IMG/VR virus record: IMGVR_UViG_3300050821_010673
Span: 3,325 to 67,324 of that record
Reading direction: 5' to 3' (one strand)
Length of the DNA: 64,000 nucleotides
DNA from: a virus
Both the position numbers and the translations under genes were made by a program. Under the pieces are notes generated by a model, which ran no database searches, was not told where the DNA came from, and saw only the letters and a list, made by a program, of their open reading frames with translations. The stretch's first letter is position 1. Every line of letters begins with the position of its first letter. Of this stretch, positions 18,345-43,491 are shown in pieces.

Positions 18345-18609
18345 CAAGATGGTCGCGGAGATCGGAGCGTTCACGATCTTTCGTAAGTCCGACTCGCAGG
18401 AGTACGAGATCGTCGGTCCGGCAGTTCAGAACTCTCCTCTTGCCTATACGATGGTTCGGACGACACCGGATCGTCTAGCCAAGATCCTTAGCATTGTCCG
18501 TCTTGACGCTCGGAACTCGAAGTGACCGTGTACACCGTGACTTGGCACAGAAGAATAGAAGAGTGCCGTAGAAACTCGAATTGCAGAACTTAGCGTCGAG
18601 GGAAGACAA

Positions 18610-19098
18610 ATGAGTCTCGAAGAGCATGTCAAGGCCGTCCAGCGGTATATGGTGGCAGAAGAGAAAGTGCGACAGCTAGAACTTCAGATTAGTGAAGTCT
18701 GGGAGCTACTGGACTCCATGCCCAGCGGTCCCGGTGAGGGGGCGGTGTCTTGTGAGTCTGAAGTTCGGGACCAGATTGCATGGTCAGACAAGTATCGAGC
18801 CCTGAAACTTAAGCACGGTATTACCGAACATCCAAGGTGTCATTGGGACGGAGGAACGGTCCCATGTGACTACCAGAAGCCATGCCCGGATCATAGCTGC
18901 GCCTGCTGTAGGGCGGTGGCGAAGCGCGGAGACAAATGCCTGAAGTGCGGTGGTTTCGCGGAAAAGCCAAAGAATGAGATGGGGCAGTACGAGGGCCTTA
19001 CAAGCAAACTCGCCCCAGAGCATCCGTTCACGGCGACCGAGTTGAAGGCGCTTCAGGACTCGCCGCACAAGGTCGCCGAAAAGCGGAAGGAGGACTGA
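18610..19098 (+). CDS. Cys-rich hypothetical protein
   Basis: ORF downstream of a family A site. Confidence 0.5.
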   Translation: MSLEEHVKAVQRYMVAEEKVRQLELQISEVWELLDSMPSGPGEGAVSCESEVRDQIAWSDKYRALKLKHGITEHPRCHWDGGTVPCDYQKPCPDHSCACCRAVAKRGDKCLKCGGFAEKPKNEMGQYEGLTSKLAPEHPFTATELKALQDSPHKVAEKRKED

Positions 19099-20125
19099 CA
19101 AATGCAATGGTGCCATAAGTGCAACGAGCCGCACGACTATGTTTACTACCACGTCGCGCTGATCCCTTGGGGCTTGGACGAAGACTAGACGGAAGAACGC
19201 TATGGCGAAGACGGAAACCGAAAAGGAAGCTGAACGACTTCGTCAGCTTCAGGACCGGAAGCAGCGGGATCGGGTCTGCCACGAATCAGGCTGCGACCAC
19301 CACGGCCACCAGAAGAGGGCCGGATGGTGGTACTGCATTCGGCATCTTGGCGGGATTTCCTGAGTACCGAGGAACGTATGGCGAGACTAAAACTCCGGTG
19401 CTATGTCTGCGGGAAGCTGCTCTCGAAGCTGGGAGACTTCGCGCTCGTCTCTCCGAGTCCAAGCGCGGTTGATCGGGCCTTTGTGGTGCATGGCGGGGAT
19501 TGCTTGAAGCGGGTTCGAGAGGACCATCCCCACGTTGAAGTTCGACTGCACGGATGAGCTATAGAGGGATTGACATATGGAACCTGTGAGCCCGATTTGC
19601 ACCTGCGGCCATCCGATGCACCAGCATTGCGGCGATGGGTGCTACGTCATCGTGAACAGGGAGAGCGGCCTAAAGGAAGTGTTCTGCGCCTGCAAAGTGT
19701 CGGGCGGCCAGTACGATCCGGATCGTGATTCATGACATTGGACGTTCTCCCTTGCCGCCGTAAGCACCGATACCCGAGGACTTGGATGTACTCCATTGGA
19801 AGGTCGTTCCGTACTCGCTTCTGCAAACGCTGCCTTGAACAGGATTGGCAGGAACTTCGCGGCGGTCGTTATCTGAATCCCATTACCCAAGAAGGACGTA
19901 AGCCGTGACCTATAGGACAAAGCAGAAGTGGCGGCTCTGGTGCCTCCATCTCCCGGCCTTCATCGTGTGCTGTATTCCGGTTGGCCTGTGGTGGGCATGG
20001 GCGGCGTTCCTTGAACACTGGGACGAGGCTCTCCTATGGGCCGATGGCGTCGACGACTGGAACGCCAAGCATCCGGAGGATCAGTACCGTGGTTCGTAAT
20101 TCCAGCGATAGGAAGGCATAGAATC

Positions 20126-21049
20126 ATGGTAGAGTGCCAGCTCCGCCTCCACCCGACGGCCGGGCGGCACTACGTCCACGTCTTTCCGAGCGATCAGTTC
20201 CTCTGGGAGATCCGGGACTGCTACCTGTCGGCCGCGCGTCGGATCCCGTGGATGTCTGTCGACAACCTGCCGTACTGGAATGTCCACAGGCCGGAGTGGG
20301 ACGAGCCGGAGCGGATCGTGATCTTCTGGGGCTGCATCCCGGAGTACATCCCGAGCCACCGGAAGGCCGCCGCGGTCCTTCGGTACACGGAGTCGGTCGG
20401 CATCCCGGAGGGGCTGAATTCCGTCCAGAACTCGATCGTCGAGAGATTCTCTTACTGTCCGGACCGGTTTGACCTGCTGCTCGGTGGAACATCGACGGTC
20501 GCAAACTTCTGGGCTGGGAAGTACCGGGAGACGGCCTTCGCGCCGATCGGCTACGAACCTGCGATCCTGGGGCGTCCGCATTGGCCGACCAAGACCACCG
20601 ACATCGCCTTTCGTGGGAACGCCATAGGACGGAGGAACTGGATCCTTGGAAAGCTGAGAAAGTCGTTCCCGAAGCTTCTCTGGATCCACTCATTCGGTCT
20701 TGCGCGGAAAGTCGAGCTCGACCGATCCAAGATCGATCTGTATGTGGGTCATTCCGACGAGCCGAGCTTCCCCGGGATGCGCCTCTGGCAGGGGATTGCC
20801 TCGTCGGCGGCGCTGGTCACGGAGCCTCGGGACGCATTTCCAGCAGTAGCTGGGCGCCACTACCTGGAGATCCCGTCGGCCGATCCGGACATGTTCGGCT
20901 ACTTTGTCGAGAGCATCCGGGACATCCTTAAGGACGAGAAGACTCTTGAGCGGATCGCCAAGACCGCTCATATCGAGCTTTCGGCATATACGATCGACCG
21001 GTGCATGGAAGAGTTCGTTGTCCCGGCTACGAGGGGGTTGCACGGATGA
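20126..21049 (+). CDS. glycosyltransferase (CgeB/Glyco_trans_1_2-like)
   Basis: DIAFRG, SKIDL, MRLWQG..S.AALVTE, GRHY; start uncertain. Confidence 0.65.
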   Translation: MVECQLRLHPTAGRHYVHVFPSDQFLWEIRDCYLSAARRIPWMSVDNLPYWNVHRPEWDEPERIVIFWGCIPEYIPSHRKAAAVLRYTESVGIPEGLNSVQNSIVERFSYCPDRFDLLLGGTSTVANFWAGKYRETAFAPIGYEPAILGRPHWPTKTTDIAFRGNAIGRRNWILGKLRKSFPKLLWIHSFGLARKVELDRSKIDLYVGHSDEPSFPGMRLWQGIASSAALVTEPRDAFPAVAGRHYLEIPSADPDMFGYFVESIRDILKDEKTLERIAKTAHIELSAYTIDRCMEEFVVPATRGLHG

Positions 21050-21888: not shown

Positions 21889-22568
21889 GCAGACCGTTCG
21901 TCATGTTCGGGTACTCGCACCTGTTCGGGGACATCGTCGACTGCATCGAGTCGGTCGGTGGACAGCTCGAGCTGGTCGTCCTGAACGTTCCGGAAGATCC
22001 GCGTCCTGGGCGCGCCACTCTCGCCGAGCGGGTCGGCCGACTGAACTCCGACGTCGCGATCATTCGGAACTTCAGCAACTTCGCGAATAGCAATCTCCGT
22101 GAAAAATTCGGGAATCGCTGCGTCCTGGGGTTCTCCCGGAAGCAGGCGGTCCCTCTACTTGAGACTCTCGAGCACAGTCTGGCGATCCTCGGGAATCCGA
22201 TCGTTCACGCGACGGCGATCCAGCAGAAGGGCTCCAGGGTCGACTCCTGGTCGATCGTCAACGTCGGGGCGATCCTGGGGTCCTGGTCGTACGTCGGCCG
22301 ACACGTCATCGTGAACCGCGGCGCCTCGATTGGGCACGACGCGGTGATCCGGGACCACTGCGTCATCTCGCCGGGGGCCGTCCTGTGCAGCCACGTCCGG
22401 CTCGACGACGACGTTCTGGTCGGGGCGAACGCGACGATCCTGCCGGACGTCCAGGTCGGCGCCGGAGCGACGATCGCCGCTGGCGCTGTCGTCCGGGAGG
22501 ACGTCCCGGCGAACACGATGGTCGCCGGAGTCCCGGCCGTCGTCAAGAAGGGGCCGATAGAATTCTAG
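21885..22568 (+). CDS. PglD/NeuD-family hexapeptide-repeat acetyltransferase
   Basis: IGHD, hexapeptide repeats, AGAVVREDVP..VAGVPA. Confidence 0.9.
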   Translation: MSRPFVMFGYSHLFGDIVDCIESVGGQLELVVLNVPEDPRPGRATLAERVGRLNSDVAIIRNFSNFANSNLREKFGNRCVLGFSRKQAVPLLETLEHSLAILGNPIVHATAIQQKGSRVDSWSIVNVGAILGSWSYVGRHVIVNRGASIGHDAVIRDHCVISPGAVLCSHVRLDDDVLVGANATILPDVQVGAGATIAAGAVVREDVPANTMVAGVPAVVKKGPIEF

Positions 22569-23120
22569 GGTAGGGAGGGCCCTGGCGGAACACCCGCTTC
22601 GGACCCTCCCCAGGTTGGGGCGTAGTCTGACTGGATTATACAAGGAGATCGAAGATGCTAGTGGACCTCGTCCGGAAGATCGATGCGTTCGTCGCGAAGT
22701 ACGGCGGCCAGAACCAGGAGAAGTTCAAAGCCGACCTCATGGAGGTCGTCGAGGAGGCCGTCGGCCACGGCGAAGGGAAGGACCAGGGGAAGATCGTCGG
22801 AATCGCTTCGAAGCTCATCAAGGGCTTCTTCGGCAAGAAGGAAGACTGACCGTGAGGAAGACGAACGAGAAGACGAAAAGGACCATCTATAACTGCGACC
22901 GCTGCGGAAAGAAGTTCGCCGAGAGCTACCCTGGAGAGGCGACGGATCCGGCGGACACCAGCGTCAGACGTGGATCCCGCCTCTCGATGCCGGTCGTCGT
23001 CCGGAACAAGATTCACTTCGAGCTGGCCGACCTCTGCGGTCCGTGTACACTGTCACTTTCGAAGTGGTACACCCCGAAGAAGTCGGTGGCACAGTAAATA
23101 TCTTCTGTGCCACATTCTAT

Positions 23121-23150
23121 TTGACATAGTAATGTGCCATGTCATATTAA
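23121..23150 (+). promoter_or_regulatory. possible promoter next to a family A site
   Basis: TTGACA at 23121, AT-rich -10 region, TGACAT/ATGTCA inverted repeat. Confidence 0.4.
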
Positions 23151-23396
23151 ACTCGATATGCTTACAAAGAAAAACGGTTGGTGCAGGATCTCCTGCGGGG
23201 TCAATCTCCGTTCAAACGAGCGGACGATTGAAATTGAGGTTGGCGGTGACATCGGGTCAAGGCCGTTCATAATCGTAAAGATGACTCCGAAGGACTTCTC
23301 GGAAGCCCTTGTAAGTCACGTTGACCGACAGTGTCAGGTCGAAGATTTACGCGATTGAACTAAGTTTGGCGCGGAGAGCTCCTGGAGAAGAAGGAG

Positions 23397-23750
23397 GTGA
23401 GCATGTTCAAGAAGAGCATCGAGGCGATTATCGCCCAGGGTGTCAAGGATCTCGAGGCCGTCGTCAAGCAGACTCGTCAGGCGGCCGATGACGCGAAGAT
23501 CCGGGTCTCACAGTGTCAGTCCGAGATCCAGACGCTGGTCAATCTCGCGAATCAGGTCCCGGAGAAGGTATTCGATCGGTACTCGAACGTGCTCGTTGGA
23601 ACAATCGATCAGCAGGCAAGCTCTTCAATGGGCCTTTACGCACGCCTTCGTCTCAATACAGGAGAAACAGACCTACGTGGCTTCATGGGGCCAGAAGACG
23701 TGAAGTCAGGAAAGTACCGCGTCATTGTCCTCCTGGAACCGATCTCATGA
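23397..23750 (+). CDS. hypothetical protein
   Basis: AAGGAGG RBS; stop overlaps next ATG. Confidence 0.6.
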   Translation: MSMFKKSIEAIIAQGVKDLEAVVKQTRQAADDAKIRVSQCQSEIQTLVNLANQVPEKVFDRYSNVLVGTIDQQASSSMGLYARLRLNTGETDLRGFMGPEDVKSGKYRVIVLLEPIS

Positions 23751-24151
23751 GATTCAAGCTCGGTGACTTCATCGTCGAGACCGACGGCACCTACGCCATG
23801 GTAGAGTGCTCCGGAAAGAACCACACCTGGAATCCGTCCGATACGTTCCTCTGTCCATGGTGTGAGGAGGCCGCTGGGCGAGTCGCCGAGCACGTCCCGC
23901 AGAGGATGGATCATTGCCTGCCGTGCAGGAAGAATTTCGAGAGAGGTGAACGTCACTACTTCAAGCAGGGCGTTCCGGGATCCTCGATGTGCCTGGAGTG
24001 CGTAAAGAGGCATGGTCTCGATAAGTACAAGCACTGGCTCGTTACGGAGTGTCGCTTGTTCCACTACTGGACGGACGCCGAGGTCTCCCGTGGAAAACCG
24101 ATTGGCGAGTTCTCGCCGCCGGATTGCAAGAAGCTCTGTTGCAATTTATGA
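23747..24151 (+). CDS. Zn-finger-rich hypothetical protein
   Basis: CPWC, CLPC, CLEC. Confidence 0.55.
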   Translation: MRFKLGDFIVETDGTYAMVECSGKNHTWNPSDTFLCPWCEEAAGRVAEHVPQRMDHCLPCRKNFERGERHYFKQGVPGSSMCLECVKRHGLDKYKHWLVTECRLFHYWTDAEVSRGKPIGEFSPPDCKKLCCNL

Positions 24152-24796
24152 AGATGAACGAAAATCAGAAGACGGCTGTCGGATGCTCTATGAGCCTGAT
24201 CGGCTGCTTTACCATCATTATTCTATTCGCGGCGGTCGCTGGGATCTCCGTGAAGCTGTTTCATATGATCGCTCACTAAGGAGGCTTTATGTTCTGGTGG
24301 CTCTGGCGATTCCTGTGGTGGCCACGTTGGACGTATGAGATCGCTGTCGGCACCTCGCACGCAAGCGCCGAGGAGGCGAAACAAAACGCGCTGATCCAGG
24401 CCGGAAAGATCGGCGGCGAGATCGTCGGGATCGCGGCCGACGCCATGTGCTGCGGTGGCGAGCAGGGCGGTGCGGGCGCCGAGTGGGACGTCTACCTGCT
24501 CATCCGGAAGTAGCATGGTCGGCGGCTACATCCAGTGGACTGGTCTCAGCTTCCATGAGGTTAGGATCGACGAAGAGTCGCTTCATGGGAAGGAGATCAC
24601 CCAGGACATGCTCTACCACATGTTCGCCTCCGGGCTGTTCGACTACGTGAGAGTTAAGTTCAAGTGGAGCGACGACGTCACGGCGTACGGCCGGGACAGG
24701 ATGATGAAGTTCGTCCAGGAGCTGGACCGGCTGGAGATCCGGCGACTGCGGGCGGAGCTGGCCGAGCTGAAGGAACGGAAGAAGGACTGAAGAGAA

Positions 24797-25003
24797 ATGG
24801 ACAAACCGGAAGACGGCGGCGCGGCATTCCCGTACGACAATCCCGACGACGGCGAGCGCGGAATGTCGCTCCGGGACTACTTCGCCGGTCAGGTGATTGG
24901 TCTGTACCTCACTCAAGATTCTCCGAAAATCGCGGCACGTCTAGCCTACAAGCTCGCGGATGACATGATCGAGGCACGTAACCTGTCGAAGGAGCAGCCA
25001 TGA
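24797..25003 (+). CDS. phage hypothetical protein (LRDYFAG family)
   Basis: GGAAFP..GMSLRDYFAG..AYKLADDMIEAR. Confidence 0.75.
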   Translation: MDKPEDGGAAFPYDNPDDGERGMSLRDYFAGQVIGLYLTQDSPKIAARLAYKLADDMIEARNLSKEQP

Positions 25004-25278
25004 ACCGGATCACGCTGAATGGAAAGAAGTCGTCGAAGCTAGAGCCGGTTGAACTCGTTCCTCCTGGATTCTCACTGAAGATCTCCGCCGATTCGTCGAA
25101 CTCCGGGAGAGTCTACATCTGGTCAAGCAAGAGAACCTGATACGAGAAAGAGAAGTACGTCGTCCTCGAGCCGGGAGCCTGGATCACCCTGGCCGTTGGA
25201 TCGTCCGGAACGGTCTTCGCGCGCGGTAGTAAAGACGGACAGGTGATCTCGTTCACGACGGTTGAGGGGATTAGGTAG
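25000..25278 (+). pseudogene. paralog of virion protein 58456-58869 with in-frame TGA
   Basis: VPPGF..A...NSGRVY..*..LEPGAWITLA aligns with VPNGF..A...NNGTIY..LEPGAFVELA; TGA at 25138-25140. Confidence 0.6.
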
Positions 25279-25306
25279 ATACTTTAGAGCTGAACGGAGA
25301 AGAGGA

Positions 25307-25750
25307 ATGAAGGTCTACATCGCTGCCAGCTGGAAGCACCAGCACGCTGTCGAGATGCTGACGTCCATGCTTCGGGACCGAGGTCACGAGGTCCTGTCGT
25401 TCGTCGAGAACAATCATGGCGAGCAGAAAGGTCATGAGGCGACGAAGGACGGGAAGTCGATGCCGTTCGACGACTGGGTCTGGTCGCAGCGTGGGAAGGA
25501 CTCGTTCGACTACGACACGAACAGCGCCATGAACTCTGACTGTGTTCTGTATATCGGTCCGTCTGGGAAGGATGCCTCGGCTGAGCTCGGAATGGCTTTT
25601 GCGCGCGGTGTAAAAATCATCGGCCTATACGCCAAGGGCGAAGACTTTGGCTTGATGCGCCGGATGGTAGAGTGGGTTCATAGCTACCAGCAGATGCTTG
25701 GTCTGGTCGAGCTCCACGACACTGTAATATCAGCTAGGCGGCACAATTGA
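25307..25750 (+). CDS. nucleoside 2-deoxyribosyltransferase-like protein
   Basis: MKVYIAAS, D...M.SD, SGKDASAELGMA. Confidence 0.7.
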   Translation: MKVYIAASWKHQHAVEMLTSMLRDRGHEVLSFVENNHGEQKGHEATKDGKSMPFDDWVWSQRGKDSFDYDTNSAMNSDCVLYIGPSGKDASAELGMAFARGVKIIGLYAKGEDFGLMRRMVEWVHSYQQMLGLVELHDTVISARRHN

Positions 25751-25776
25751 CCTATTGAGTGCCAAGGGAGGACACG

Positions 25777-26010
25777 ATGATTCCGCCGGAAGCATGGAAC
25801 AAACTACAGGCCGCCCTGGAGAAGGAAGCTCCATTTGCAATCCCGTTCGGGCTCACTCTTAGGGACCACTTCGCTGGGATTGCCCTCCAGGGGATGCTCG
25901 CGTCAGGAAGCTATAGTCCAAAGCAAGACCTTAGCGAGATTGCCTACGATCAGGCCGACAAGATGCTCGCGCGTAGGAAGGCTACACTGACGGCACAGAA
26001 GCCGAATTGA
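25777..26010 (+). CDS. phage hypothetical protein (LRDHFAG family)
   Basis: GLTLRDHFAGIALQGMLA..AYDQADKMLARR; bounded by two family A sites. Confidence 0.75.
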   Translation: MIPPEAWNKLQAALEKEAPFAIPFGLTLRDHFAGIALQGMLASGSYSPKQDLSEIAYDQADKMLARRKATLTAQKPN

Positions 26011-26027
26011 GTGCCAAAGGAGAAGCC

Positions 26028-26246
26028 ATGGATGATGCCGGGCTGAAGGAGATCCAGGATAAGCTCAAGGAGTTTATCGGCCAAAAAGGGGTCTACGTCC
26101 TGATGGTATTTGACGGCCAGGATACCCGATGCTGGGCCGATGGTGACAGTCGACTGAAGATGCGCGGTCTCTTGGAATGCGGATACGATCTTCTCCGGGA
26201 CGGGCTGACACCGCCAGCTAAACCATTACCTACGGATCAAAACTAG
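26028..26246 (+). CDS. hypothetical cassette-like ORF
   Basis: AAGGAG RBS; bounded by two family A sites. Confidence 0.6.
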   Translation: MDDAGLKEIQDKLKEFIGQKGVYVLMVFDGQDTRCWADGDSRLKMRGLLECGYDLLRDGLTPPAKPLPTDQN

Positions 26247-27014
26247 TAGGCACAGAAGGCAGATTGAGTGCCACTGGAAGAAGGAGGTATCTATGGGAAT
26301 GGGAATGCCGATCAGCAATCTCCATCGAGTTATTCGTACTCTGGAGAAGACGTGGCAGGCGTGGTGGGAGGAAACGAATCCGAAGCGGAAAAGGAAGCTA
26401 GAGGATAACTTCGAGTACCTCTTAGCGGAAGCGCACACATTTCTTGGATATGTCGACGAGGAGTGGCGCGAAGCTTTCCAAAAGCCGTCGAAAACGCCCG
26501 AATATGACCAGAAGCTCCAGCACGATCTTGTGAACAACTTCGTGCCAGAGTACGACAGGAAGAAGAAGGCTCTGTAGGAGGATCTATGATTGCGACCTGT
26601 ACTGTCTGCGGCGCCCTATACGAAGCTGGCAGCGAGGAGCAGGCTTACGAACCCGTTCGCTACTGTGGCGGAACTAAATGCGTGAAGGCTGGAGAACGGA
26701 AGACTGAGTCACTCCGTGAATACCTGGACCGGAAAAACATAAAGACGGCTGACTGAGGTAAAGAATGCCAAATCAAACGTTCCACTTAGACGAGGAGATG
26801 TCTCTGATGCTTGAGATGTGCGTCAAGCTGAAGATCATCCATCAGATCGTGATCTTCAAGGACGACTCCGACCGGGCGTACGAGAAGTCCATCCAGATCT
26901 CGGATCCGTCGAGAGATCCTAATTGGATCAGAATTAATTCCATAGCGACGCTCGTCGATGTCGTGTCCGAGCGGAAGTTGGGCACCTTGGCACAGAAGAG
27001 GTAAAGAGTGCACG

Positions 27015-27284
27015 ATGGATCAAATACAGCGCGATAGCAAGAACCTGATCGACGACCTCATGGTTCAGCTCGCGAGTAAGGGGTACTTCGCGGTTGGGGT
27101 CATCGTGTACAACGAGAACGCCACCTCAGACCATGAGGCAGTCAAGGTCGGCTGCGCCATAGATTTCTACTCGCACCCAAAGATGAGACCGATCGTCATT
27201 CGGATGCTTCGGAACGTGGCGACCATCCTTGAGGCTGGCGCTGGGAAAGCAAAGGTCGATGTGATCGAGATTCCGGAACCGTAG
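27015..27284 (+). CDS. hypothetical cassette-like ORF
   Basis: Bounded by family A sites 26989 and 27288. Confidence 0.55.
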   Translation: MDQIQRDSKNLIDDLMVQLASKGYFAVGVIVYNENATSDHEAVKVGCAIDFYSHPKMRPIVIRMLRNVATILEAGAGKAKVDVIEIPEP

Positions 27285-27318
27285 GTTGGCACAGAAAAGG
27301 TGAAGAGTGCCCAAAGAG

Positions 27319-30046: not shown

Positions 30047-30049
30047 ACG

Positions 30050-31269: not shown

Positions 31270-31276
31270 GAGGCCC

Positions 31277-33626: not shown

Positions 33627-33660
33627 GATGGGGCGCCGAGCGTTGTCTCGGCGCCCCGTC
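33627..33660. terminator. GC-rich hairpin
   Basis: GATGGGGCGCCGAG/CTCGGCGCCCCGTC. Confidence 0.5.
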
Positions 33661-35089
33661 GAGAGAGGGATGGAAAGGAATATTTAATGTACTTCGAAGG
33701 AAAATCAACTGCAAGGAGGATCTGGCGATGAGCAGCGGCATTCAGGTTCTGATGGCCCCGCTCCCGGGGCAGCGGATCGTCAACGCGAAGGATCCGGAGG
33801 ACGGCTACGAGGACGGCTCGGTCCTGGCCTACCGGAAGGATGGTGACGAGGTTCTGTTCGCCTCCTGGGACGTCGAGGAGCCCAAAGGCATGGTCTGGAT
33901 CCCCGTGGTGGAGTTCACGCCGGATCCCGAGGCAATCCAGCCGCCGGACCTCGCCGACGTCGAGCAGCCCGTCGAGGAGTCGACCGACGGCACCGGCACG
34001 TCCGAGAAGCCCCAGAGCAGCCCGTTCGGCCGCGGAGGCCTCCGGCGCCGTCCGGGGGTGGAGTAGGCCATGGGAAAAAAGAGCAAGCCGGACGAGCCCG
34101 AGCAGTATGAGATCTGGATCCTGACCGAGGTGAAGGGCTGGTTCCAGGTCCAGGAGGACGGAAATCCGATCTTCACCAACAAGAACCGGGCCCTCCTGCT
34201 GGCCTTCCAGAAGTCTGGAGGGACCGGCGTCGTCGAGACTGTCGTCTTCGCCCGCCGCGCGATCGCCACGTTCAACGGCGAGGCCGTCGGCGCGAAGCAT
34301 CGTTTGAAGGTCATGGAGAAGAAGGAGGTTCCAGATGCCCCGGTTCACAGCGGTGGTGAAAAAGAAGTCGACGTTCCGGACACCGGTCCTGCAGACCAAC
34401 CTGAAGCCGGTCCTGGTGGGGCCTGACGGAAAGGAGCTTCCGAAGGACGCCGACGGCGCCTACATCGGCACCGGCGTGCCGAAGTTCGAGCTCACGAAGA
34501 CCGACTCGGTCGACGATCCCCTGACGGACGAGACCGGCAACCCGGTCACGGCCGGAAGCCCCGAGGCGCTCCTCCGGAAGGTCAAGGAGCACTTCGCCGC
34601 CGACGAGTTCGAGAACGTCGAGATCCTGGAGGTCGCGATCCAGGAGACCCTGACCATGCGGAAAGTGACCGGCGAGGAGCTGAAGAAGCTGTGACGATCG
34701 AGGGGGACATCCCGGTCGCCTGCGTCGAGTCCGGAGCGGTCTACCTGCTCCGGAAGGTGGCCGGGGAGGACCCAAAGCACCTCGCCACCGCCATCCAGGG
34801 CCTGGAGCGGGACGGGGTCAACATGCGCTTCGTCGGGGTCCCCTGCTCGGACTGCCGGTTCACGGTATCGACCGACCGGGACATGGCGAAGAGCTCGACC
34901 TGCGAGTACCGGCCCCTCTGCGGGCCTCTGTACGTTCCACGAAAGCCCGGAGCCCTGCCTTCCCAGGATAGGGGCTCCCATACCCCTCCCTGAACGCTGG
35001 AGGGGCCCGGACACCTTACCCGGGCCCCTCCGGGGGCATGGAACCCCGGGTCTGGAGGCCGGAAAGGTACTTCCGTGAGGTTGTAGACG

Positions 35090-35536
35090 ATGGAAATCAA
35101 GCTTGGAAAGAGCGGGCTCGTCGCACTAGTTGACGAGGAGGACTTCGAGCGTGTCTCGAAGTACCGCTGGTATCCGGATATCAGGAAGAACGGACAGCGG
35201 TACGCAAAAGGAAAGATTGATGGTCGCTGGACAAGAATGCATCGGTTTATTTTCAACCTTCCTCCAGGTGTAGGTGAAGTCGACCACGAAGATGGAGACG
35301 GTTTTAACAACCGAAGAGGAAACCTGATTCAAAGCACTAGGGCTGAGAATGCCAGGAACGGCAGGAAGCACAGAGACGGTAAGTCTCGCCATCGTGGAGT
35401 TCAGCCCTTCAGAGATCACTGGACGGCAGTCCTTTGGTTAGGACACTTCGAGACCGAGGAAGCTGCCGCTGCGGCCTACGTCAAAGCATACCAAGGGTAC
35501 TTTGGGCATCCTCCCAGGCACCCATCTAAGCCGTAA
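35090..35536 (+). CDS. HNH-AP2 type homing endonuclease
   Basis: ALVDEED, MHRFI, VDHEDGDGFNNRRGNL, LGHFETEEAAA.AY. Confidence 0.85.
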   Translation: MEIKLGKSGLVALVDEEDFERVSKYRWYPDIRKNGQRYAKGKIDGRWTRMHRFIFNLPPGVGEVDHEDGDGFNNRRGNLIQSTRAENARNGRKHRDGKSRHRGVQPFRDHWTAVLWLGHFETEEAAAAAYVKAYQGYFGHPPRHPSKP

Positions 35537-35593
35537 ATCCCTCCTAGGGATGGCATAAAAGGATCATTTCATGCCAAATCGCATATTTTTCGT

Positions 35594-35622
35594 TTGACTA
35601 CTGTACAGTAGTCGTATAGAAT
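35594..35622 (+). promoter_or_regulatory. sigma70 promoter with embedded 18-bp palindromic operator
   Basis: TTGACT-17-TAGAAT; perfect palindrome GACTACTGTACAGTAGTC at 35596-35613. Confidence 0.7.
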
Positions 35623-35628
35623 CATGTC

Positions 35629-36234
35629 ATGAGGAAAGGAGGTCCCCAGGTGAAGAAGGACACGGTCAACCGGGAGACGTGGCTGCGGGCGGCGTACGCC
35701 CTCCTGCGGCGTAAGCTCCTGAAGGAGGCGCCGGAGCGCGTCGCGATCTCCTGGTCGTTCCCGGCCAAGGGCGGGACGTCGGCGAACCGGCGTCGGATCG
35801 GCGAGTGCCACTACAAGGGCGGCTCGGCCGACGGCAAGATCGAGGGGGACCGGGTCCTCCTGATCTCCCCGACGCTCCGGACGCCGTACGAGCTGGTCGA
35901 GGTCCTGCTCCACGAAATGGTCCACGCGACCCTGCCGATGGGCTGCGGACACCGGGCGCAGTTCTCCCGGCTCGCGGCCAGGGTCGGCCTCGTGAAGCCC
36001 TGGACGGCCACGAAGGCCTCTCCGGAGCTCGCCAAGCGGATCCAGGGGGAGTTCCTGAAGGCCCTGCCGGTCTGGCCCGGCGGCTTCCTGACGATCCAGA
36101 CGACCCAGAAGAACCGCCAGCTGAAGGCGGTCTGCCAGTGCGACGAGCCCAGGATCATCCGTGGCTCGGCGAAGCTCTTCGAGCAGGGCCCGATCGTCTG
36201 CGGCCTGTGCGACGAGCCGTTCAACCTGGACTAG
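35629..36234 (+). CDS. SprT-like zinc metallopeptidase domain protein
   Basis: LLHEMVH, GH...F, C-terminal CQC..CGLC. Confidence 0.8.
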   Translation: MRKGGPQVKKDTVNRETWLRAAYALLRRKLLKEAPERVAISWSFPAKGGTSANRRRIGECHYKGGSADGKIEGDRVLLISPTLRTPYELVEVLLHEMVHATLPMGCGHRAQFSRLAARVGLVKPWTATKASPELAKRIQGEFLKALPVWPGGFLTIQTTQKNRQLKAVCQCDEPRIIRGSAKLFEQGPIVCGLCDEPFNLD

Positions 36235-36270
36235 CGCGTGTACACGACGACTTTCAAGAAGGAGGATATC

Positions 36271-36711
36271 ATGATGTCCACGATGGAACCGAAGGCCGCG
36301 CGCCCGGCCTGCAAGCTCTTCAACGGGCGCTACACGGTCGAGTCGAAGGCGACCGGCGAGTACCGGACCTTCTGGGTCCGGACGCACGCCGCGGACGCCG
36401 AGTTCGCGCCCGGAAAGCGCGTCCTGTCTCTCCTGACCGGCTCCCAGAACGACGATCCGGACCACTACACCGGCTTCGCCTTCGTCGACGACTCCGGGAT
36501 CCACGTCTGGCACTCGAAGGCCGACAAGAGCCCGCTCTGGCGCCAGTACGCCGACATGCTATGGACGCTGGCCCTGGACGGTGCCTTCTCGACCTGGGCC
36601 GCTAAGGGCTACCGGATCCACCAGGAGGGCAGCTGCATGAGGTGCAACCGGCCCCTGACGACGCCCCGGTCGATCCAGATGGGCATCGGACCAATCTGCG
36701 AGAACCTGTAG
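36271..36711 (+). CDS. DUF6011-like phage protein
   Basis: CMRCNRPLTTPRSIQMGIGPIC. Confidence 0.75.
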   Translation: MMSTMEPKAARPACKLFNGRYTVESKATGEYRTFWVRTHAADAEFAPGKRVLSLLTGSQNDDPDHYTGFAFVDDSGIHVWHSKADKSPLWRQYADMLWTLALDGAFSTWAAKGYRIHQEGSCMRCNRPLTTPRSIQMGIGPICENL

Positions 36712-36722
36712 AAGGAGGACTC

Positions 36723-36944
36723 ATGTTCTGTGCCACTTGCATCAGCTACCCGGACCACGTCAGCTTCGCGGTCTAGGTGATCGCCGACGACTCCGGCAAG
36801 TTCTGCGGCAATAGCCTGCGCTTCGGCTCGCCGGACGAGGCTAAGACGTACGCCAAGGATCTGTACTCCCGCTGGACCGCGGTCCGGGAGTACCGTGTCG
36901 TTCCGTCGACGGATCCCGTGAATCAGAAGGTCATGGTCCGCTGA
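36723..36944 (+). pseudogene. small phage ORF with in-frame TAG
   Basis: AAGGAGG-ATG, then ..SFAV*VIADDSGKFCGNSLRF..; TAG at 36774-36776. Confidence 0.5.
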
Positions 36945-37769
36945 AGAGGAGGTGTTCATTGAATTCAGAGAAGCTACCTGAGACCGATCTCCACGCGGTC
37001 ACGAGAGTCGGCATCTTTGACGTCCAGGTCTGCTCACTCGCTAGCGAGGAGGATGCGCTGGCCTGGGTCCGCAGCGCTTTCCCGTCCGGGACGAAGGCTA
37101 ACTGGATGAAGTCCGACGACGACCGTCACAAGCCGATCGCCTGCGCCAACTGGGGCGGTCGGACGCACTACGTATTTGTTTCCTAGAGGAAGGAGGAGCG
37201 CGATGCGATCGAAGGACGTCAATCCCGAGAAGTTCCCGCACCTGTACGCAGCCCTGCGGCGCGCCGAGGTGCGGTACATCGACAACGGCTGGGCCAGGGT
37301 CGCCGAGCTGCGCCGATCGGGCCAGGACGACTCGGCCGGTCGGCTCGCCCGGAAGCTCCTGGGCGTCCAGGGTCCGCCGATGTCCGAGGAGACCAAGGAG
37401 AAGCTGCGCCGGTACAACGAGGATCACAAGGAGGAGATCCGGGAGCGCAAGCAGCAGGAGCGCGAGGTCCGGCAGCGGACGCTGGCGATCCTGACGACGG
37501 GAAGGAGGATCCGCCGGTGATCGAGACGAAGTACAAGTGGACGGTCTACCTTGCTGGAGATCTCCTGGACATCATGACGGACAAGGAGGTGGAGTATCTC
37601 GTCTGCACCTGGAAAATTCATCGTATCGATACGGAGCGCGGTGTCATCGAGTTTTGAGGAAGGAGGAACCCATGCATCACTTTCACGGTAACGCGGGACT
37701 GTTTCTGCTCGGCGTCCTTGTTCTGGTCGTCGCGGTCCTGCTCTCGATGAGAAGGGAGGAGATGTAGGC

Positions 37770-38093
37770 ATGGTCACTCAGGTAAGGATCGCGGCCGAGC
37801 TCGGGCTGGACGTCTCGACCGTCAACAAGATCATCAATAGAGTCGAAGGCCCGGTCTTCCTGGATAAGACCATCAAGGCGGTCTTCCAGAAGGCCCGGGA
37901 GCTCGGCTATCAGCCCAGCAGCGCCTCGAAGGGTATTATGAGGCGGACTCTGGAGGAGCTATTTCCGAGAGAGGACGACAACGTCACCCTGGCGATCATT
38001 CGTGGGGTCGACCACCACGAGGTCGTCCGCATCAAGAAGATGGTCTACAAGGACTATTCTCCTAAGGAGGGGAGGCCCCTTCCGAAGGCGTAA
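37770..38093 (+). CDS. LacI-type HTH DNA-binding protein
   Basis: TQVRIAAELGLDVSTVNKIIN...ARELGYQP. Confidence 0.8.
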   Translation: MVTQVRIAAELGLDVSTVNKIINRVEGPVFLDKTIKAVFQKARELGYQPSSASKGIMRRTLEELFPREDDNVTLAIIRGVDHHEVVRIKKMVYKDYSPKEGRPLPKA

Positions 38094-38105
38094 CCCCTCT
38101 CTATC

Positions 38106-38137
38106 TGGGCCGGAGCACTTGTGCTCCGGCCCATCTT
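38106..38137 (+). terminator. hairpin terminator
   Basis: TGGGCCGGAGCAC/GTGCTCCGGCCCA. Confidence 0.55.
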
Positions 38138-38387
38138 GCGGGCGCTCCTGTGTGGAGCGTCCACAAGATGGTAACTTGTCGCGTCTGCCGTCAGCGTCCG
38201 GACTTCGTCGCGATCCGCCAGACCAGGATCCGCGCCCGGATCTACGGGATCGTCCCGTACGGGCTATGCTTCTGTGGAATGGAAGTCCTGCCTGAGCGGA
38301 ACGACCGGAACTACCGGAAACGCTGGAAACGGACCTTATGGAGGCTCGTATTCCGTGCCGGTAACCAGGGGTAATCTTGAGGTTTTC

Positions 38388-38882
38388 ATGCCCGAAAAGA
38401 CCCGGTTAGGCCTGTTCCTAGACAAGATCTGGATCGGTCCGCTGACCGGCTGCTGGTACTGGACCGGCGCGATCCGTCGCTGGTCGAAGGAGCCGTGGGA
38501 CGGCGGCTACGGGGCGTTCTGGGACGGAGAGCGGGTCGTCCGGGCGCACGTCTGGTTCTACCGGCAGCTGATCGGTGAGATTCCGCCAGGGAACGTACTG
38601 CTCCACGAGTGCGACAACAGGAGATGTGTCAACGTCGTCAAGCACATCCGCCCCGGGACGCAGCTCCAAAACGTCCGGGACATGATCGCCAAGGGAAGAT
38701 CGATTCAGCAGCGTCGAAAGGCTACAATTCTACAGGGAGGATCCATTGCCGAATCCACGACTCCGGAAGGGTCATCCAAATCCGTACGGTCCGACGGGCT
38801 TGTCCAGGTCGGTCCTCCTGCAGCTCGAGAATGGGCCAGTCACGATCAACCAGATCCTGGAGACGCTCGGCCCTCGGTCTGA
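38388..38882 (+). CDS. HNH endonuclease
   Basis: CWYWTG, GYG, RAH, LHECDNRRCVN..H...GT...N..DM..KGR. Confidence 0.85.
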   Translation: MPEKTRLGLFLDKIWIGPLTGCWYWTGAIRRWSKEPWDGGYGAFWDGERVVRAHVWFYRQLIGEIPPGNVLLHECDNRRCVNVVKHIRPGTQLQNVRDMIAKGRSIQQRRKATILQGGSIAESTTPEGSSKSVRSDGLVQVGPPAAREWASHDQPDPGDARPSV

Positions 38883-39099
38883 CGGCGTCAATCGAGGGAC
38901 GGTCTATACGATCCTGGCCCGGGCCGCCCAGAACGGTCTCGTCGCCTGCAACAAGACCGATGCCAACGCGAAGAGGCCGTACTTCTTCGAGCTGACGGAC
39001 GGCGGTCGGCGCCGGGTGAAGTGGATCCGCGGGCGCGCCCGGAAGAAGGTCCACGAGGAACGCCGGGCTGTTGCGAACCCGAAGGCCGAGGAGGAGTGA
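38746..39099 (+). CDS. winged-helix (PadR/MarR-like) DNA-binding protein
   Basis: GTVYTILAR...GLV...FELTDGG. Confidence 0.65.
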   Translation: MPNPRLRKGHPNPYGPTGLSRSVLLQLENGPVTINQILETLGPRSDGVNRGTVYTILARAAQNGLVACNKTDANAKRPYFFELTDGGRRRVKWIRGRARKKVHEERRAVANPKAEEE

Positions 39100-40247
39100 T
39101 GGGTAAGCTCGACGTCTCCATGAAGAAGTGGGAGAAGAATCCCGCCATGCTCCGGATCATCCGGATGCTCGAGGACGCCTTCAACTCGATCGGCGAGAAG
39201 ATCCGCACGGACCTCCTGAAGGCCTACCGTGCGCACGCGAAGGAGTCGTACGACGAGTTCGTGAAGGCCATGAAAACCAGCGTCGGAGAGATTACTCCAA
39301 GAGGTGAGCGCTTCCCGAAATTCAAGAACTGGCACGACTATGTTGCGATCGACACGAAGAGGGCCCAGCAGGCCGGTATCTACACCAGCTACGTCTCCAC
39401 CTGGATGCAGGTGAAACAGCTGTATGCCTTCGTCTCCGTGGACTACAGTAAGGCCGAGGAGCAGGCGAACTACTCGTACGAGCGCGCCCGGGACTCCTTC
39501 GTCTACAAGAACATCGGCAAGCTGGCGAACGTCCTCGGTGCCCGTCAGGACCTGAAGAACGCCGTCATCAGGTTCGACTGGAGAGGAAACTACTTCAAGG
39601 GGAACATCCAGGTCTACCTGGAAGGCGCCTACTTCCGAGGCGACGTCGACATCAAGTACGTGATCCGCCGGATCCCGAACGTCACGCCGTACTTCCAGTA
39701 CCCTCTCGTATTCGTCGAGGCGGACGTCAACGGCACGCACTACCCTCGTCCGTCCGAGGAAGAGCTCCGGATCCTCCTCGGCGCCACGAAGAGCGCCGCC
39801 GAGGAGAAGCGGGAGCTCGCCGCTGCGGCCGGGATCTGCCCGATGAGCGGACAGTCCGTCCCGGATTCGCTCCTGAAGGGACTGTACAACAGGATGGCTG
39901 TCTACGTCCGGTGTCCCGGCTGCGGAGCCGTCGCCAGTGTCGTCAAGGACACCTGGAAGTTCCGGAGCCACAAGACGCCGGGCGCCGAACGGGCCGGAGC
40001 TGCAGCGAAGCTCGAGACGGCGGGCTACTGCCCGAAGAGCCGCGAGAAGGTGTCTCCGGCGACGATCGCTACGATCGGTCCAGTTTCAGGATACAGCGAT
40101 CCGAAGGTCGTCTGCGAGGGCTGCGGGCAGATGACCCGGCTCGACGCCAAGAGGGAATGGATCTTTGAAGGCGTCAAGGAAGGTGAGCACGCGACGAAAG
40201 CTCGCGTGACGTCGGCCGTGTATTACAAGCATAAGCTGGCACACTAG
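39099..40247 (+). CDS. hypothetical protein with two C-terminal Zn-finger repeats
   Basis: GICPMS..CPGCG..HK and GYCPKS..CEGCG..HK; stop lies inside a family A site. Confidence 0.65.
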   Translation: MGKLDVSMKKWEKNPAMLRIIRMLEDAFNSIGEKIRTDLLKAYRAHAKESYDEFVKAMKTSVGEITPRGERFPKFKNWHDYVAIDTKRAQQAGIYTSYVSTWMQVKQLYAFVSVDYSKAEEQANYSYERARDSFVYKNIGKLANVLGARQDLKNAVIRFDWRGNYFKGNIQVYLEGAYFRGDVDIKYVIRRIPNVTPYFQYPLVFVEADVNGTHYPRPSEEELRILLGATKSAAEEKRELAAAAGICPMSGQSVPDSLLKGLYNRMAVYVRCPGCGAVASVVKDTWKFRSHKTPGAERAGAAAKLETAGYCPKSREKVSPATIATIGPVSGYSDPKVVCEGCGQMTRLDAKREWIFEGVKEGEHATKARVTSAVYYKHKLAH

Positions 40248-40313
40248 CTAAATAGAGTGCCGTAGGCGTATAATCGTACAACGGGAAGATTATAGAGCGA
40301 CATCGGAGGTAAT

Positions 40314-40772
40314 ATGGATCCATTGTTAGTCGGTGGAGGGGCGCTACTGGCGTACCTCTTTCTCTCCAAGAAGAGTGATCCTGTAGCCAGCCTCACCGAT
40401 CAAGCGATGGCAATTGCTCAGCAAAACATCGACAGTGGAGTTCCAGTCTCTCAGGCGATCAATCATGCGGCAGCCTCTGTTGTAGCTGTATCCCAGAATC
40501 AACCCCCACCCCCATCCCCACTGCAATACTCATCTATTTCCACTCCAACGGCCCCAAGTGGCCCGATCATCAGCCTCAACGACCCGCGCATCAGCGCGGC
40601 GATAGCGAATAAAGACGCTATGTTTGGGGCGGAGATCAGCGCGGTCGGAATGCCAATCGACGTCCGGAACGCGCTCGTCTCTCAAGGCTGGACGTGGACC
40701 GGCTCTGTCTTTAATCCAGGCGGCCTGTACCCCCCTGGTACGGACCCATCGAAGATAATTATCGCTGCCTAG
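40314..40772 (+). CDS. membrane-anchored virion-like protein
   Basis: N-terminal TM (LLVGGGALLAYLFL-SKK); SGVPVSQAI module shared with structural genes. Confidence 0.6.
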   Translation: MDPLLVGGGALLAYLFLSKKSDPVASLTDQAMAIAQQNIDSGVPVSQAINHAAASVVAVSQNQPPPPSPLQYSSISTPTAPSGPIISLNDPRISAAIANKDAMFGAEISAVGMPIDVRNALVSQGWTWTGSVFNPGGLYPPGTDPSKIIIAA

Positions 40773-42812
40773 GTAATCGAAGATAAATTGGTGATCACGA
40801 TGAATCTACTGACAAGTAGTGGGCGGATCCCAAAGAAGAAGTGGTTTGTCATGCGGCGCTCCGACTGGAGGGTTATCTCTCGCCATCAGTTTAAAAGCGC
40901 GGCCTTAGATAAGGCTCTCCTGGTAGCGTCGAAAACCGGACAGAAGTATGCACTTTGCGTGATCGCAATGCATGGTGGAGAGCCGGTCCTGGTTGAGACC
41001 GATTTTATTGGTCCAGAAAACTTTTCTCGTAGGTAATCTTAGTGGAAGAAGATTATAAATGCCTTGTAGAGCTTGCGGAAAGAGTTCAGAGGTCGGCCGT
41101 TGCCGGTATCAGTGGGAGGGGATCGGCCGATTCGCTGCATACCTATTCTTGGAGTGGGGACCTCCCGCGTGGCCGTGGCGTTGGTGGATGAACTGACCAT
41201 GGAAATCACTGTGGATGCCCAGATCTATGCGGATTCGTTCCGTCATCTGATGAGACTCAGAGATAAGACGGCGAAGGGAGCGTGGAAGGTCCGTGGCATT
41301 CGCGATCCACATGGAGAGAGGTTTCGTAGGGCGGCAGAGAAAATATACGGTGACATGGTCGGTGAGGATCCGTGGAGATTCTTCGAGGAGATGACGGAAA
41401 GCCTTGCCTACAAGTTCTCGAATGCCTCTGGACTTGATTACGAACACGCCGCTCGCGCCCTGGTAAACTACAGCAGCGATCCTCGCCCTGGTCTTACCCC
41501 GCTTCTACGGGCAATCGAAAGAGAGGCAGAATGAACGTCGCAGACCTAAAACCAGGGATGTACAAGGTCACTAAGGATGTCGTCAATCCGAAGTCAGACC
41601 GCCGGAGGTCCAGCAGGAACTTCTCAATGTTGCCTAAGTGGGAGAAGGGTCTCAGGGTTTGCGTTCAAATTGAGGAGTCAGAAAACAGGCTCCATCCGAA
41701 CCGCGCAACCATCTTTCGCGCTAGCGGCTATTCATTCTACGGAGTGACCGGCCGCGAAAATGGTGAACTTAACCACTCCGGCTTCGATGCCCTAGTCGCT
41801 GCGCTTCAACCTGTCGAGTGGACCGATGAGGAGTGGGTCCATGTTCACGTCAGCAACGGAGACCATGTCCTCGTGAGACTTTTGGAGTCCGGAAAAATCA
41901 CCAGGGAGGACATCAAGAGGACGCTCCATAGGTAATCTTCTCGGCATACGATTATAAAATGAAAAACTGCTGTGCCTGTGGACGGAAGATCCAGGATACA
42001 CCAATCGACACCTGGGGTCAGTGGTGCGTTCCATGTCAAACGCGGATCAAGCTGGAGACGCCATGGTATTCTCCGGGAATGAGACAGGCCGAGCAGATGA
42101 AGGCCGAGGCTGACTGGAAATTAAAGCATGGTCCTAAACCTATAATCGGAGTTGCTAAGTGCCCGTTCTGCGGAGGAGACGCAAAGCTCGCGACCGCAGA
42201 GCTTGGTCCATATCTGATCGAGTGTCGATGTGGCGCCACTGGAGCCCGGTCTAATACTCCAGAGGGAGCTGCGCTGATGTGGAATGGTAGAGTCGGCTCA
42301 CCTACGTAATCTTCTTGGTGGAAGATAAATGACCGACTTCGTTCACTCTCGGGACTGTAAGAACTTGCTGTGCCGCCTGATCTGGTGGCTCTGCGGTCGT
42401 AGTTAGAGGAGGCTTTATGGATGGCGTGACTCCGGTAACCGTGGTATTCACCCCGGAAGGCGTGACGGTCATCTCAATCAAGGGCAGCACGACCTATAAT
42501 AGGTTGATCCCATGGAAGGAGATGTACAAGCTCGGCCTCCGCGGCGAGAAGTTCACGGGCCCGGCCTTTACGAAGCAACTCGCGAAGAAGGTCGACGAGC
42601 TGGTCGCCTCCAACGTCAAGAACATGGACTCCAACAAGGAGTTTCTGAAGAGGATGCGTCGGACGAAGGTTCTGCTGCCGCCTCGCCCGGCGGCGGCTCC
42701 ATAAGGGAAGTTACGCCGCTGGCCGGGCTGAGCTCCGGGTCGGTGCGTTTGTGTGGGGGATCGGGTTCCGAGCCCGTCCCCCTGTAATCTTATTGGTGGA
42801 AAATAAATAAGC

Positions 42813-43427
42813 ATGACGAAGCCAACTGCCAACCGTCTTTATCCTTGGCAAAGAGAGGGCTACCTTAAACCTAAGGCCCAGCCTCTTTTCGACACGATCA
42901 TCCTCCCGGCAAAGCAACCGCTTGGTAGGTATTATGCGTTTCGGAATCAAATGAAATTCGACGACGGGGTCTACAAGACGCCTGCGGATACGAACATGAG
43001 CCTCTGCGGACAGCTTGGAACTCCTCTCGAGTACGACTTCCGCTGGATGGAACTGCACTTCGAGCGGTACGAGAGGTCTGCAGCGAAGTTTGCGATGAGG
43101 TTCATTCGAGTTAGTTTTATATTTGGACACCAGACCGTGTGGCAAAGGATGTGCGGAGCTGCATGGCGCCCACTGATCGACTGTCCGAAGAATCCGATCA
43201 CCAACGAATCAGCCCAGGTCCAAGCGAAAGCTGTCGCTGATGAATTCCAGAAGAGAGGCGAGTTCTGGCCTCACTACTGGACTCCGGTTGGAGATGTGTA
43301 CTCCCCCAGAAGGATCGACTCGGTCGAAGCGTTCCAGGTAGAGGTCGACTTCTCTGAGCCTGTTCTTCTGAATGACCCAATCCATCTGAAGGTCGTAATG
43401 CAGGACGTGATGTACAGTCCCCACTAG
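42813..43427 (+). CDS. divergent paralog of putative capsid protein 60687-61331
   Basis: QPLFDT..KTPADTNMSLCGQLGTPLEYD versus QPLYDS..KTFLYSNQTQAGSLGTPLSFD. Confidence 0.7.
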   Translation: MTKPTANRLYPWQREGYLKPKAQPLFDTIILPAKQPLGRYYAFRNQMKFDDGVYKTPADTNMSLCGQLGTPLEYDFRWMELHFERYERSAAKFAMRFIRVSFIFGHQTVWQRMCGAAWRPLIDCPKNPITNESAQVQAKAVADEFQKRGEFWPHYWTPVGDVYSPRRIDSVEAFQVEVDFSEPVLLNDPIHLKVVMQDVMYSPH

Positions 43428-43491
43428 ATAATCTTCTCTGCGTACGATTATAGTGGCACATAATCCACATTAGATGCATCTGGGAGGAGAC

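Follow-up and report, generated by a model that had tools for sequence, protein, structure and literature searches.

The accessory arm and its junction sites

The window analysed here is a stretch of 64,000 nucleotides, bases 3325–67324 of a single 67,324-bp viral contig (IMGVR_UViG_3300050821_010673; completeness rating 93%), and the subject is a series of 24-bp sites, termed family A, that punctuates the small genes of its accessory arm. Genes lie on the + strand from about 300 to 44,300 and on the − strand from 44,600 to the end; the + strand arm encodes a helicase, a Sak4-like annealing protein, a primase, glycosyl- and methyltransferases and ThyX, with many small genes after them. When the two halves of this arm were compared by Megablast with 50,697 phage records, no cultured relative was found, and the primase has only distant relatives (below 35% identity). 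The comparison set comprised ten related viral records obtained by pattern and profile scans (G001–G003, G006–G009, G011, the 13-kb fragment G012 and the distant G010), of which G010, G011 and the 13-kb fragment came from recombinase-profile scans of viral contigs, together with 37 non-duplicate metagenome contigs (43 loci, six of them duplicates). The phage group is one of uncultured soil viruses.

A sequence-only reading of this DNA had proposed 14 sites of the form GGCAC-N14-GTGCC, with up to two arm mismatches, at gene junctions of the accessory arm, and every one of them was confirmed there. Six consecutive sites are here called addresses A to F after their central six bases:

18544–18567, + strand: family A site with exact arms; start of a block of six open reading frames (ORFs) present in none of seven relatives
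20115–20138, + strand: family A site with a GGCAT arm and an ATG in the spacer; orthologous site with the same centre in G002
23088–23111, + strand: family A site with near-palindromic 9-bp arms and an in-site upstream stop; promoter-like sequence TTGACA-16-CATATT at 23121
25740–25763, + strand: address A, centre GACCTA; the conserved array begins here
25992–26015, + strand: address B, centre GCCGAA
26249–26272, + strand: address C, centre GGCAGA
26989–27012, + strand: address D, centre GAGGTA; upstream stop TAA, Shine-Dalgarno sequence and RTG at position 20
27288–27311, + strand: address E, centre AAGGTG; the right-arm GTG at 27307 starts the cpYpsA ORF (27307–27801)
27786–27809, + strand: address F, centre AGGCTG; degenerate arms, contains the cpYpsA stop
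30666–30689, + strand: family A site preceding a methyltransferase-recombinase pair
32251–32274, + strand: family A site following the recombinase block; a promoter-like sequence (32270) overlaps its right arm
35552–35575, + strand: weak family A site (GGCAT/ATGCC) preceding a promoter-like sequence (35594) and a SprT-like gene block
40238–40261, + strand: family A site with same-centre orthologues in G002 and G009, 9 nt 5' of a family B site
43455–43478, + strand: weak family A site, 4 nt 3' of a family B site, at the end of a lower-GC island

With up to two arm mismatches allowed, 55 matches were counted in the window against 37.8 ± 6.4 after shuffling (none of 100 shuffles reached 55), a mild enrichment only, so that many chance matches pass this criterion. 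The exact pattern is decisive: it occurs eight times in the whole 67,324-bp genome, always between window positions 18544 and 40261, as against about 0.2 occurrences expected from base composition by our own arithmetic and none for the reversed control. One mismatch at most yields 14 matches, namely 11 of the sites listed above and three others (15424, 36509 and 42351) that look like chance. A weight matrix recovers exactly these 14 sites, which span 18.5 to 43.5 kb, and picks out nothing in the replication and structural modules; the three that it scores lowest (27786, 35552 and 43455; 14.8–18.3) have sites at the same place in relatives. As the GGCAC and GTGCC pentamers occur at 2.4 per kb in all genome zones alike, with no enrichment in the site zone, only their paired arrangement at 14-nt spacing is special. 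The 24 bp are best divided into two inverted 9-bp arms (kGCAY followed by a semi-conserved W-S-W-A) and a 6-bp centre, and all family A sites are co-oriented. Finer details of the sequence-only reading also held: the eight upstream stop codons that it placed inside sites correspond to ORF ends at 23097, 25750, 26010, 27004, 27801, 30675, 32259 and 40247, promoter-like sequences do follow some sites (at 23121 and 35594, with a TATAAT at 40269), and a tyrosine recombinase gene (31277–32059) sits between sites 30666 and 32251. At site 20115 the description is refined, in that the probable ATG of the next gene falls inside the spacer.

Conserved addresses and replaced genes

Comparison of the related sequences gives strong support to the view that genes are exchanged as cassettes at these address-coded junction sites, which on this evidence is highly probable. 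Each site has its own position-specific centre, those of sites 40238 and 20115 being kept in orthologues as well, and the order A-B-C-D-E-F is held in the eight compared genomes, in G011 and in the metagenome contigs where these are long enough; some slots are missing, and D-D, E-E and D-E-D variants turn up occasionally. Retrieval of the D and E sites relied on an exact pattern, and part of their conservation is therefore a product of how they were picked, which does not apply to addresses A, B, C and F. A check blind to the centre agrees with this: 20 sequences extended far enough upstream, and in 15 of them the matrix places a site no more than 1.5 kb ahead of the first D. GGCAGA is carried by 13 of these, the C-slot sites, and in all 13 the right arm is invariant too, while the left arm occurs in six variants; the centre is thus the best-conserved part.

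What lies beside and between the addresses is, by comparison, scarcely conserved at all. Among 1713 pairs of same-address sites in different sequences, 1677 show no similarity in either 60-nt flank, and flank identity is 0.29–0.31 (null 0.29) as against 0.92 for the 24-bp site itself. The remaining pairs share the upstream flank only (6), the downstream flank only (14) or both (16), and where one flank is shared the similarity begins or ends at the edge of the site. The 80 inter-site segments fall into 61 tblastx similarity groups, and the 30 segments running from D to E into 21. The slot after E, for example, is occupied by cpYpsA here and by a Cpn10 chaperonin in G009, and other slots encode DUF6884 or zinc-ribbon proteins. 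At the scale of the genome, genes of the site-dense zones are found in none to two of seven relatives, whereas those of the long site-free blocks are mostly found in four to seven (range two to seven), and the site-dense zones have lower G+C. The most direct comparison is that of G006 with G008, which are about 95% identical: homology ends at the last base of site A, is lost again 2 nt after site C and is regained 18 nt before D, and the contents of C-D, D-E and E-F are wholly different. Directly after site A, G006 (L035) has a 132-nt insertion (6734–6865) that is absent from G008; as read from the sequence, it gives the downstream protein an in-frame zinc-ribbon extension (CxxC...CxxC) that starts at the GTG of the site A right arm.

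Duplications of the D-x-D and E-x-E type are present, as are hybrid sites between D and E. Two of the latter, near 14750 of G007 (reverse-complement coordinates) and at L053:1608, are reciprocal, one being composed of an E-type left and a D-type right half with a 13-nt spacer and the other of a D left and an E right half; both are joined within the AGGT common to the D and E centres. Among the genes carried in the window, the cassette ORF at 41959–42309 encodes a Lar restriction-alleviation domain (PF14354, E 7e-9), and further cassettes encode cpYpsA (27307–27801) and an HNH endonuclease (35090–35536), which fits an accessory, host-interaction role of the array.

The sequence-only reading had named indel breakpoints unrelated to the sites as the observation that would speak against it. 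Breakpoints in relatives instead fall at the sites, which speaks strongly for its supposition that gene gain, loss and replacement take place exactly there. Its proposal of a cassette system fared well as regards exchange at the sites and poorly as regards integron-like capture, since the sites stay in fixed order while the genes change. Its reservation that a variable spacer argues against simple exchange of the Cre/lox type falls away, because the centre is not random but a position-specific address kept across genomes, and this has become the key feature of the system.

A second set of sites, family B (TAATC-N12-GATTA, which can be recast as 8-6-8), follows the same logic, with five matches against 0.34 expected:

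40271–40292, + strand: family B site, address 1
41034–41055, + strand: family B site, address 2
41933–41954, + strand: family B site, address 3
42307–42328, + strand: family B site, address 4
43429–43450, + strand: family B site, address 5

These fill a lower-GC island (40271–43450) that is bracketed by family A sites, and they often lie 4–9 nt from a family A site. The order of their addresses is conserved in G002 and partly in G001, G008 and G009, while the spacing between them differs. Decayed copies of the family lie near 40774 and 42785, and the half-site variants TAATCTTC and TAATCGTA are found on either side.

Both the end of one gene and the beginning of the next are frequently written into a family A site. 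Of 180 sites, 94 contain the end of the upstream ORF, most commonly with the stop at site position 14, and a further 46 begin 0–6 nt after that end; ORFs that read into the left arm do so in the frame G|GCA|CAG|AAG, which gives unrelated proteins a common Ala-Gln-Lys-x ending. At addresses D, E and F the centre doubles as a Shine-Dalgarno sequence, and in 61 of 87 such sites an ORF of 35 codons or more begins at the right-arm RTG (position 20); A, B and C sites have a separate ribosome-binding site downstream. Because the sites thus supply an upstream stop, a ribosome-binding site and often a start, any gene landing in a slot would be translatable.

The candidate recombinase, the proposed mechanism and its rivals

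The enzyme most readily connected with the sites, and a candidate protein for a competing route, are encoded in the same arm:

31277–32059, + strand: tyrosine recombinase of 260 aa with a Cys/His-rich N-terminal portion of about 75 aa and a Xer-like catalytic domain; candidate enzyme for the family A sites
2494–3831, + strand: Sak4-like single-strand annealing protein; candidate for a rival short-homology route

The recombinase matches PF00589 at 57.5 bits against a cut-off of 27.1 (58.6 bits in a six-frame search) and is the sole such match in the genome, in which no serine recombinase was found. It is present in all seven of the other compared genomes at 60–71% identity, and thus in eight of eight. 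Residues R117, K145/K146, H207, R210, W233 and Y242 are invariant in seven sequences, each with a catalytic role that is presumed here from its position and from known motifs, and eight Cys or His residues are invariant within residues 1–62, where the Cys-rich N-terminus probably binds zinc. The best NCBIfam match, NF040815 (XerA), reaches 51.9 bits against a cut-off of 220 and covers residues 78–251 only, so that the catalytic domain resembles XerA and XerC in sequence while the protein falls outside the full-length equivalogs XerC, XerD, XerA and XerH; matches to the integron integrases TIGR02249 (28.5 bits against 265) and NF011946 (22.7 against 435) are likewise partial and far below their cut-offs. 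The solved folds nearest to the structural model are those of XerH, XerA, Cre and IntI; the model has a pLDDT above 80 for the catalytic core and low values for the N-terminal domain, which receives no class assignment. The protein is predicted to work like a Xer enzyme while standing outside the Xer equivalogs. The outermost arm base of the sites varies by lineage, being G in all sites of G000, G001, G003 and G007 and T in seven of 14 sites of G002 and nine of 17 of G009, with G010 grouped with these latter lineages; this difference offers a lead for co-variation with the N-terminus of the recombinase.

Homologues of the recombinase form 85 clusters, all metagenomic and on contigs of at most about 73 kb. 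A profile search found no member of the family in 185,579 species genomes, the closest match in the genome collection being a 29%-identical catalytic domain in an Acidobacteria-type metagenome-assembled genome, and because of this absence and the lack of any contig above 73 kb a role as prophage integrase is unsupported. The distant G010 (77.7 kb) has only the recombinase gene in common with the window (tblastx E ≤ 0.001) and carries one near-perfect palindromic site 1.5 kb downstream of that gene, with a score of 28.7 against a simulated genome-wide maximum of 10.8 ± 3.4 (reached in none of 300 simulations). A scan for palindromic arms gave 19 loci, and 14 of the 16 contigs new to the comparison were profile-searched (all but L121 and L135), with no member of the recombinase family in any; among the matches, G023 has four generic tyrosine recombinases and the G022 match lacks the outer arm bases. 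In the first pattern scan, the single-match loci L007, L008, L011, L013, L014 and L016–L019 gave one site each, with no recombinase in the flanking sequence covered, and in L010 and L020 no site was detected at the threshold used.

These observations allow a mechanism to be proposed. In it, the family A sites are fixed junction elements of the accessory arm, with the 6-bp centre as address; their arms would be bound by a dimer of the conserved recombinase, and the centre would form the overlap for strand exchange. Simple tyrosine-recombinase sites usually consist of two arms and a 6-bp centre (11-6-11 in dif), and enzymes of this type require that the centres of the two partners be identical. 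Identical addresses in co-infecting relatives, or in excised circles, could then recombine, with order-preserving cassette exchange as the outcome and occasional same-address duplications as a by-product, while each site would double as a stop, ribosome-binding and start adaptor for the incoming gene. Because unlike centres would be unable to recombine within one genome, the genome would not be deleted, and related phages may in this way swap accessory genes slot by slot with their genomes neither scrambled nor deleted; unique centres would explain the stability of a genome with 14 sites, the preserved order and the population-wide conservation of the centres. The recombinase is a plausible agent because it is found in eight of eight genomes, is Xer-like and co-occurs with a site in an unrelated phage. 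That the conserved recombinase catalyses centre-matched exchange, the model in full, may be put at close to an even chance, though falling just short of it. The wider proposition, that this is a natural virus-encoded form of recombinase-mediated cassette exchange with a Xer-like enzyme, a zinc-binding N-terminus and a ladder of at least a dozen heterospecific sites, is advanced more tentatively.

Exchange might instead be driven by short homology at protein-bound junction elements, resembling the PeSL elements of T4-type phages, and be catalysed by the Sak4-type annealase or by host recombination; this alternative, the chief competitor, is a serious one, if on balance improbable. The sites would then be primarily regulatory or translational junctions bound by a dimeric phage protein and homogenised by frequent exchange, and, as the only conserved 24–30 bp in a fast-evolving region, they would serve as homology patches. 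The cassette replacement, the breakpoints and the islands of site identity fit this explanation too, a Sak4-like protein is encoded here and was found in each of the other complete genomes in which it was sought (G001, G002, G007 and G009, the last by a partial match), and modular shuffling and mini-circles at PeSLs provide a published precedent (PMC2839356 and PMC4122927). It leaves unexplained, however, why all addresses have inverted arms exactly 14 nt apart, why conservation is higher in the 6-bp centre than in the neighbouring arm positions and why recombinase and site are paired in the unrelated phage G010. Twenty-four bases would, moreover, be near the lower limit for annealase-driven exchange.

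Several observations weigh against a dedicated recombinase. Family B has the same address logic and variable content, and the genome encodes no second recombinase, so that either one enzyme serves both arm families or exchange needs no dedicated recombinase; short-homology exchange accounts for two such families with no extra assumption. Strong conservation is limited to five outer bases per arm, and arm positions 1, 5, 7–9, 16, 17, 20 and 24 are polymorphic. The conservation of the D, E and F centres has a translational explanation, because these centres are Shine-Dalgarno or stop sequences, and decayed D-like half sites, with Shine-Dalgarno sequence and ATG but no left arm, occur inside arrays. 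Outside this phage group the link between recombinase and site consists of G010 alone, and the 14 further contigs with a palindromic match held no member of the recombinase family, these matches looking like chance. Little can be read from the contigs of one soil DNA run, at the low depth of about 4x, which contain no circular or deletion joint at a site over 22000–41000, the sole joint there (29076 to 30483, with 21 letters on one side) lying away from the sites. The evidence that suggests the recombinase model is, finally, comparative throughout.

It is unlikely that the sites are no more than operators or roadblocks of a regulon, comparable to stoperators, and that the mosaic borders come from illegitimate recombination at random, with selection preserving operators and gene borders, although regulation may be the primary role of the sites. 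Where a protein dimer binds, inverted arms whose halves vary independently would be expected, the sites lie at gene junctions in a single transcription direction, promoter-like sequences follow some of them, and PadR-like and helix-turn-helix proteins are encoded; stoperators are, in the account of PMC9283540, a known case of many repressor sites spread across a phage genome. However, promoter-like sequences lie anywhere from overlapping the site to 18 nt away and are lacking altogether at most array sites, a regulon has no need of position-specific centres kept across genomes, and random breaks would hardly give exact edges in genomes that are 95% identical, or unrelated flanks in 98% of pairs. 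PadR was detected in two of seven genomes (both fragments) and the helix-turn-helix protein in four of seven, with neither in G010. Between 17500 and 37400, seven promoter-like and 13 terminator-like matches were found, none lying wholly within a site and one, at 32270, overlapping the right arm of site 32251. A promoter or operator at fixed offset, named by the sequence-only reading as a finding that would count against it, was rejected since the distances from site to start codon and to promoter-like sequence both vary. The tGGCAC left arm resembles the −24 element of the sigma-54 consensus, and a sigma-54 promoter was rejected because the GC at the −12 distance is missing.

An element acting at the level of RNA, such as a hairpin that holds the ribosome-binding site or start and serves translational coupling, processing or stability, is very improbable: D, E and F sites do combine an upstream stop, a Shine-Dalgarno sequence and a downstream start, and two near-palindromic sites fold well (z −3.3 and −5.8), but for most sites folding is not stronger than that of shuffled sequence (z −0.5 to −1.7, one +1.5), many lie 10–50 nt from the start codon, and compensatory change is absent at every mirrored position pair. 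Positions 5 and 20 read C-G in 111 sites, C-A in 37, T-G in 12 and T-A in one, positions 1 and 24 and the inner arm positions vary as expected under independence, and half-site variants arise on either side independently. This lack of covariation points to a site recognised as DNA and not as an RNA hairpin, and independent half-site variation is what would be predicted for a protein dimer on DNA.

Other parts of the genome have features of their own. A cluster of glycosyltransferase-like and methyltransferase-like genes at 9270–18111, which includes ThyX (17335–18111), suggests modified DNA bases. In the presumed structural arm on the − strand (44584–64000), nine of ten large proteins have no PHROG family, the exception being a glycosyltransferase; none of them matched a terminase, portal or capsid family, and the virion is possibly not tailed. 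An origin-like region lies 3' of the primase gene at 7075–7330, where ACGGGGCAC iterons form an inverted pair (N16) and also tandem pairs that flank an AT-rich core on both sides; they contain the GGCAC pentamer of the family A arms, but at a different spacing.

Known systems and wider meaning

The array resembles several known systems in part. Among these the PeSLs of T4-type phages are, like the family A sites, short conserved elements between non-essential genes of hyperplastic regions; insertions, deletions and replacements in close relatives break at them, and they double as expression signals (PMC2839356 and PMC4122927). The same sources present PeSLs as mutually similar units of a sigma-70 promoter and a terminator stem-loop that recombine by homology, also within one genome, to yield mini-circles. 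The breakpoints between G006 and G008 and those of the one-sided pairs do fall at elements in this manner. The family A sites differ in having no in-site promoter or terminator and only weak hairpins, and in being 24-bp inverted-arm sites with a unique centre per position, a fixed order and a Xer-like recombinase as a core gene.

The likeness to pdif sites is one of anatomy, since inverted arms around a 6-bp centre are found in both families described here (9-6-9 in family A, 8-6-8 in family B). In pdif the sites are 28 bp long (11-6-11), and dif modules are flanked by inversely oriented sites. In the Acinetobacter plasmids, accessory modules bounded by such inverted-arm, Xer-type sites with a 6-bp centre are shuffled between replicons (PMC6449649, PMC13141974 and PMC12907356). 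Whereas pdif sites are served by host XerC and XerD, the candidate enzyme for family A is a single virus-encoded recombinase, and the family A sites are 24 bp long, all co-oriented with no alternation, address-specific, fixed in order and embedded in translation signals. The D/E site pattern has no match in 185,579 species genomes.

With integrons the array shares the arrangement of mostly promoterless, single-gene cassettes bounded by tyrosine-recombinase-type sites, and insertion of a circular cassette would explain the D-x-D duplications. An attC site, however, travels with its cassette, is 57–141 bp long and is recombined as a folded single strand, and the order of integron arrays is not conserved; the family A sites are 24 bp long, belong to the scaffold and keep their order. 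A closer likeness is to heterospecific lox and FRT sites, a laboratory design with Cre or Flp and 13-8-13 sites, in which identical arms with different centres block recombination between unlike sites and permit exchange between matching pairs. To our knowledge there is no natural viral counterpart of such exchange, and literature searches turned up none. The stoperators of cluster A mycobacteriophages are likewise short protein-binding sites, present in tens at intergenic junctions and in a single orientation; they differ in being asymmetric, 13 bp long, of one consensus and bound by the monomeric repressor of temperate phages (PMC9283540). They have neither position-specific centres nor a reported role as exchange points. 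The system described here thus works like PeSLs or dif modules and lacks defining features, among those tested, of integrons, pdif modules and PeSLs; literature searches turned up no description of address-coded, order-preserving punctuation in a virus.

It is a long-standing question whether phage mosaicism arises from conserved linkers that guide recombination or from random breaks followed by selection, and clear examples of linkers are few, the PeSLs being the best known. The linkers described here are unusually explicit: each has 24 bp, the shape of a protein-binding site and an address of its own, and conservation stands at 92% identity. In dozens of environmental genomes they are all that is similar where the flanks are otherwise unrelated. 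Should the recombinase act on the sites, they would represent the first natural system of address-coded cassette exchange in a virus, and one small enzyme with its compact series of orthogonal recombination sites would be a useful genetic tool. Even if exchange is driven by homology, the array provides a testable model for the circulation of accessory genes, which are probably genes of host takeover and anti-defence, in soil phage populations.

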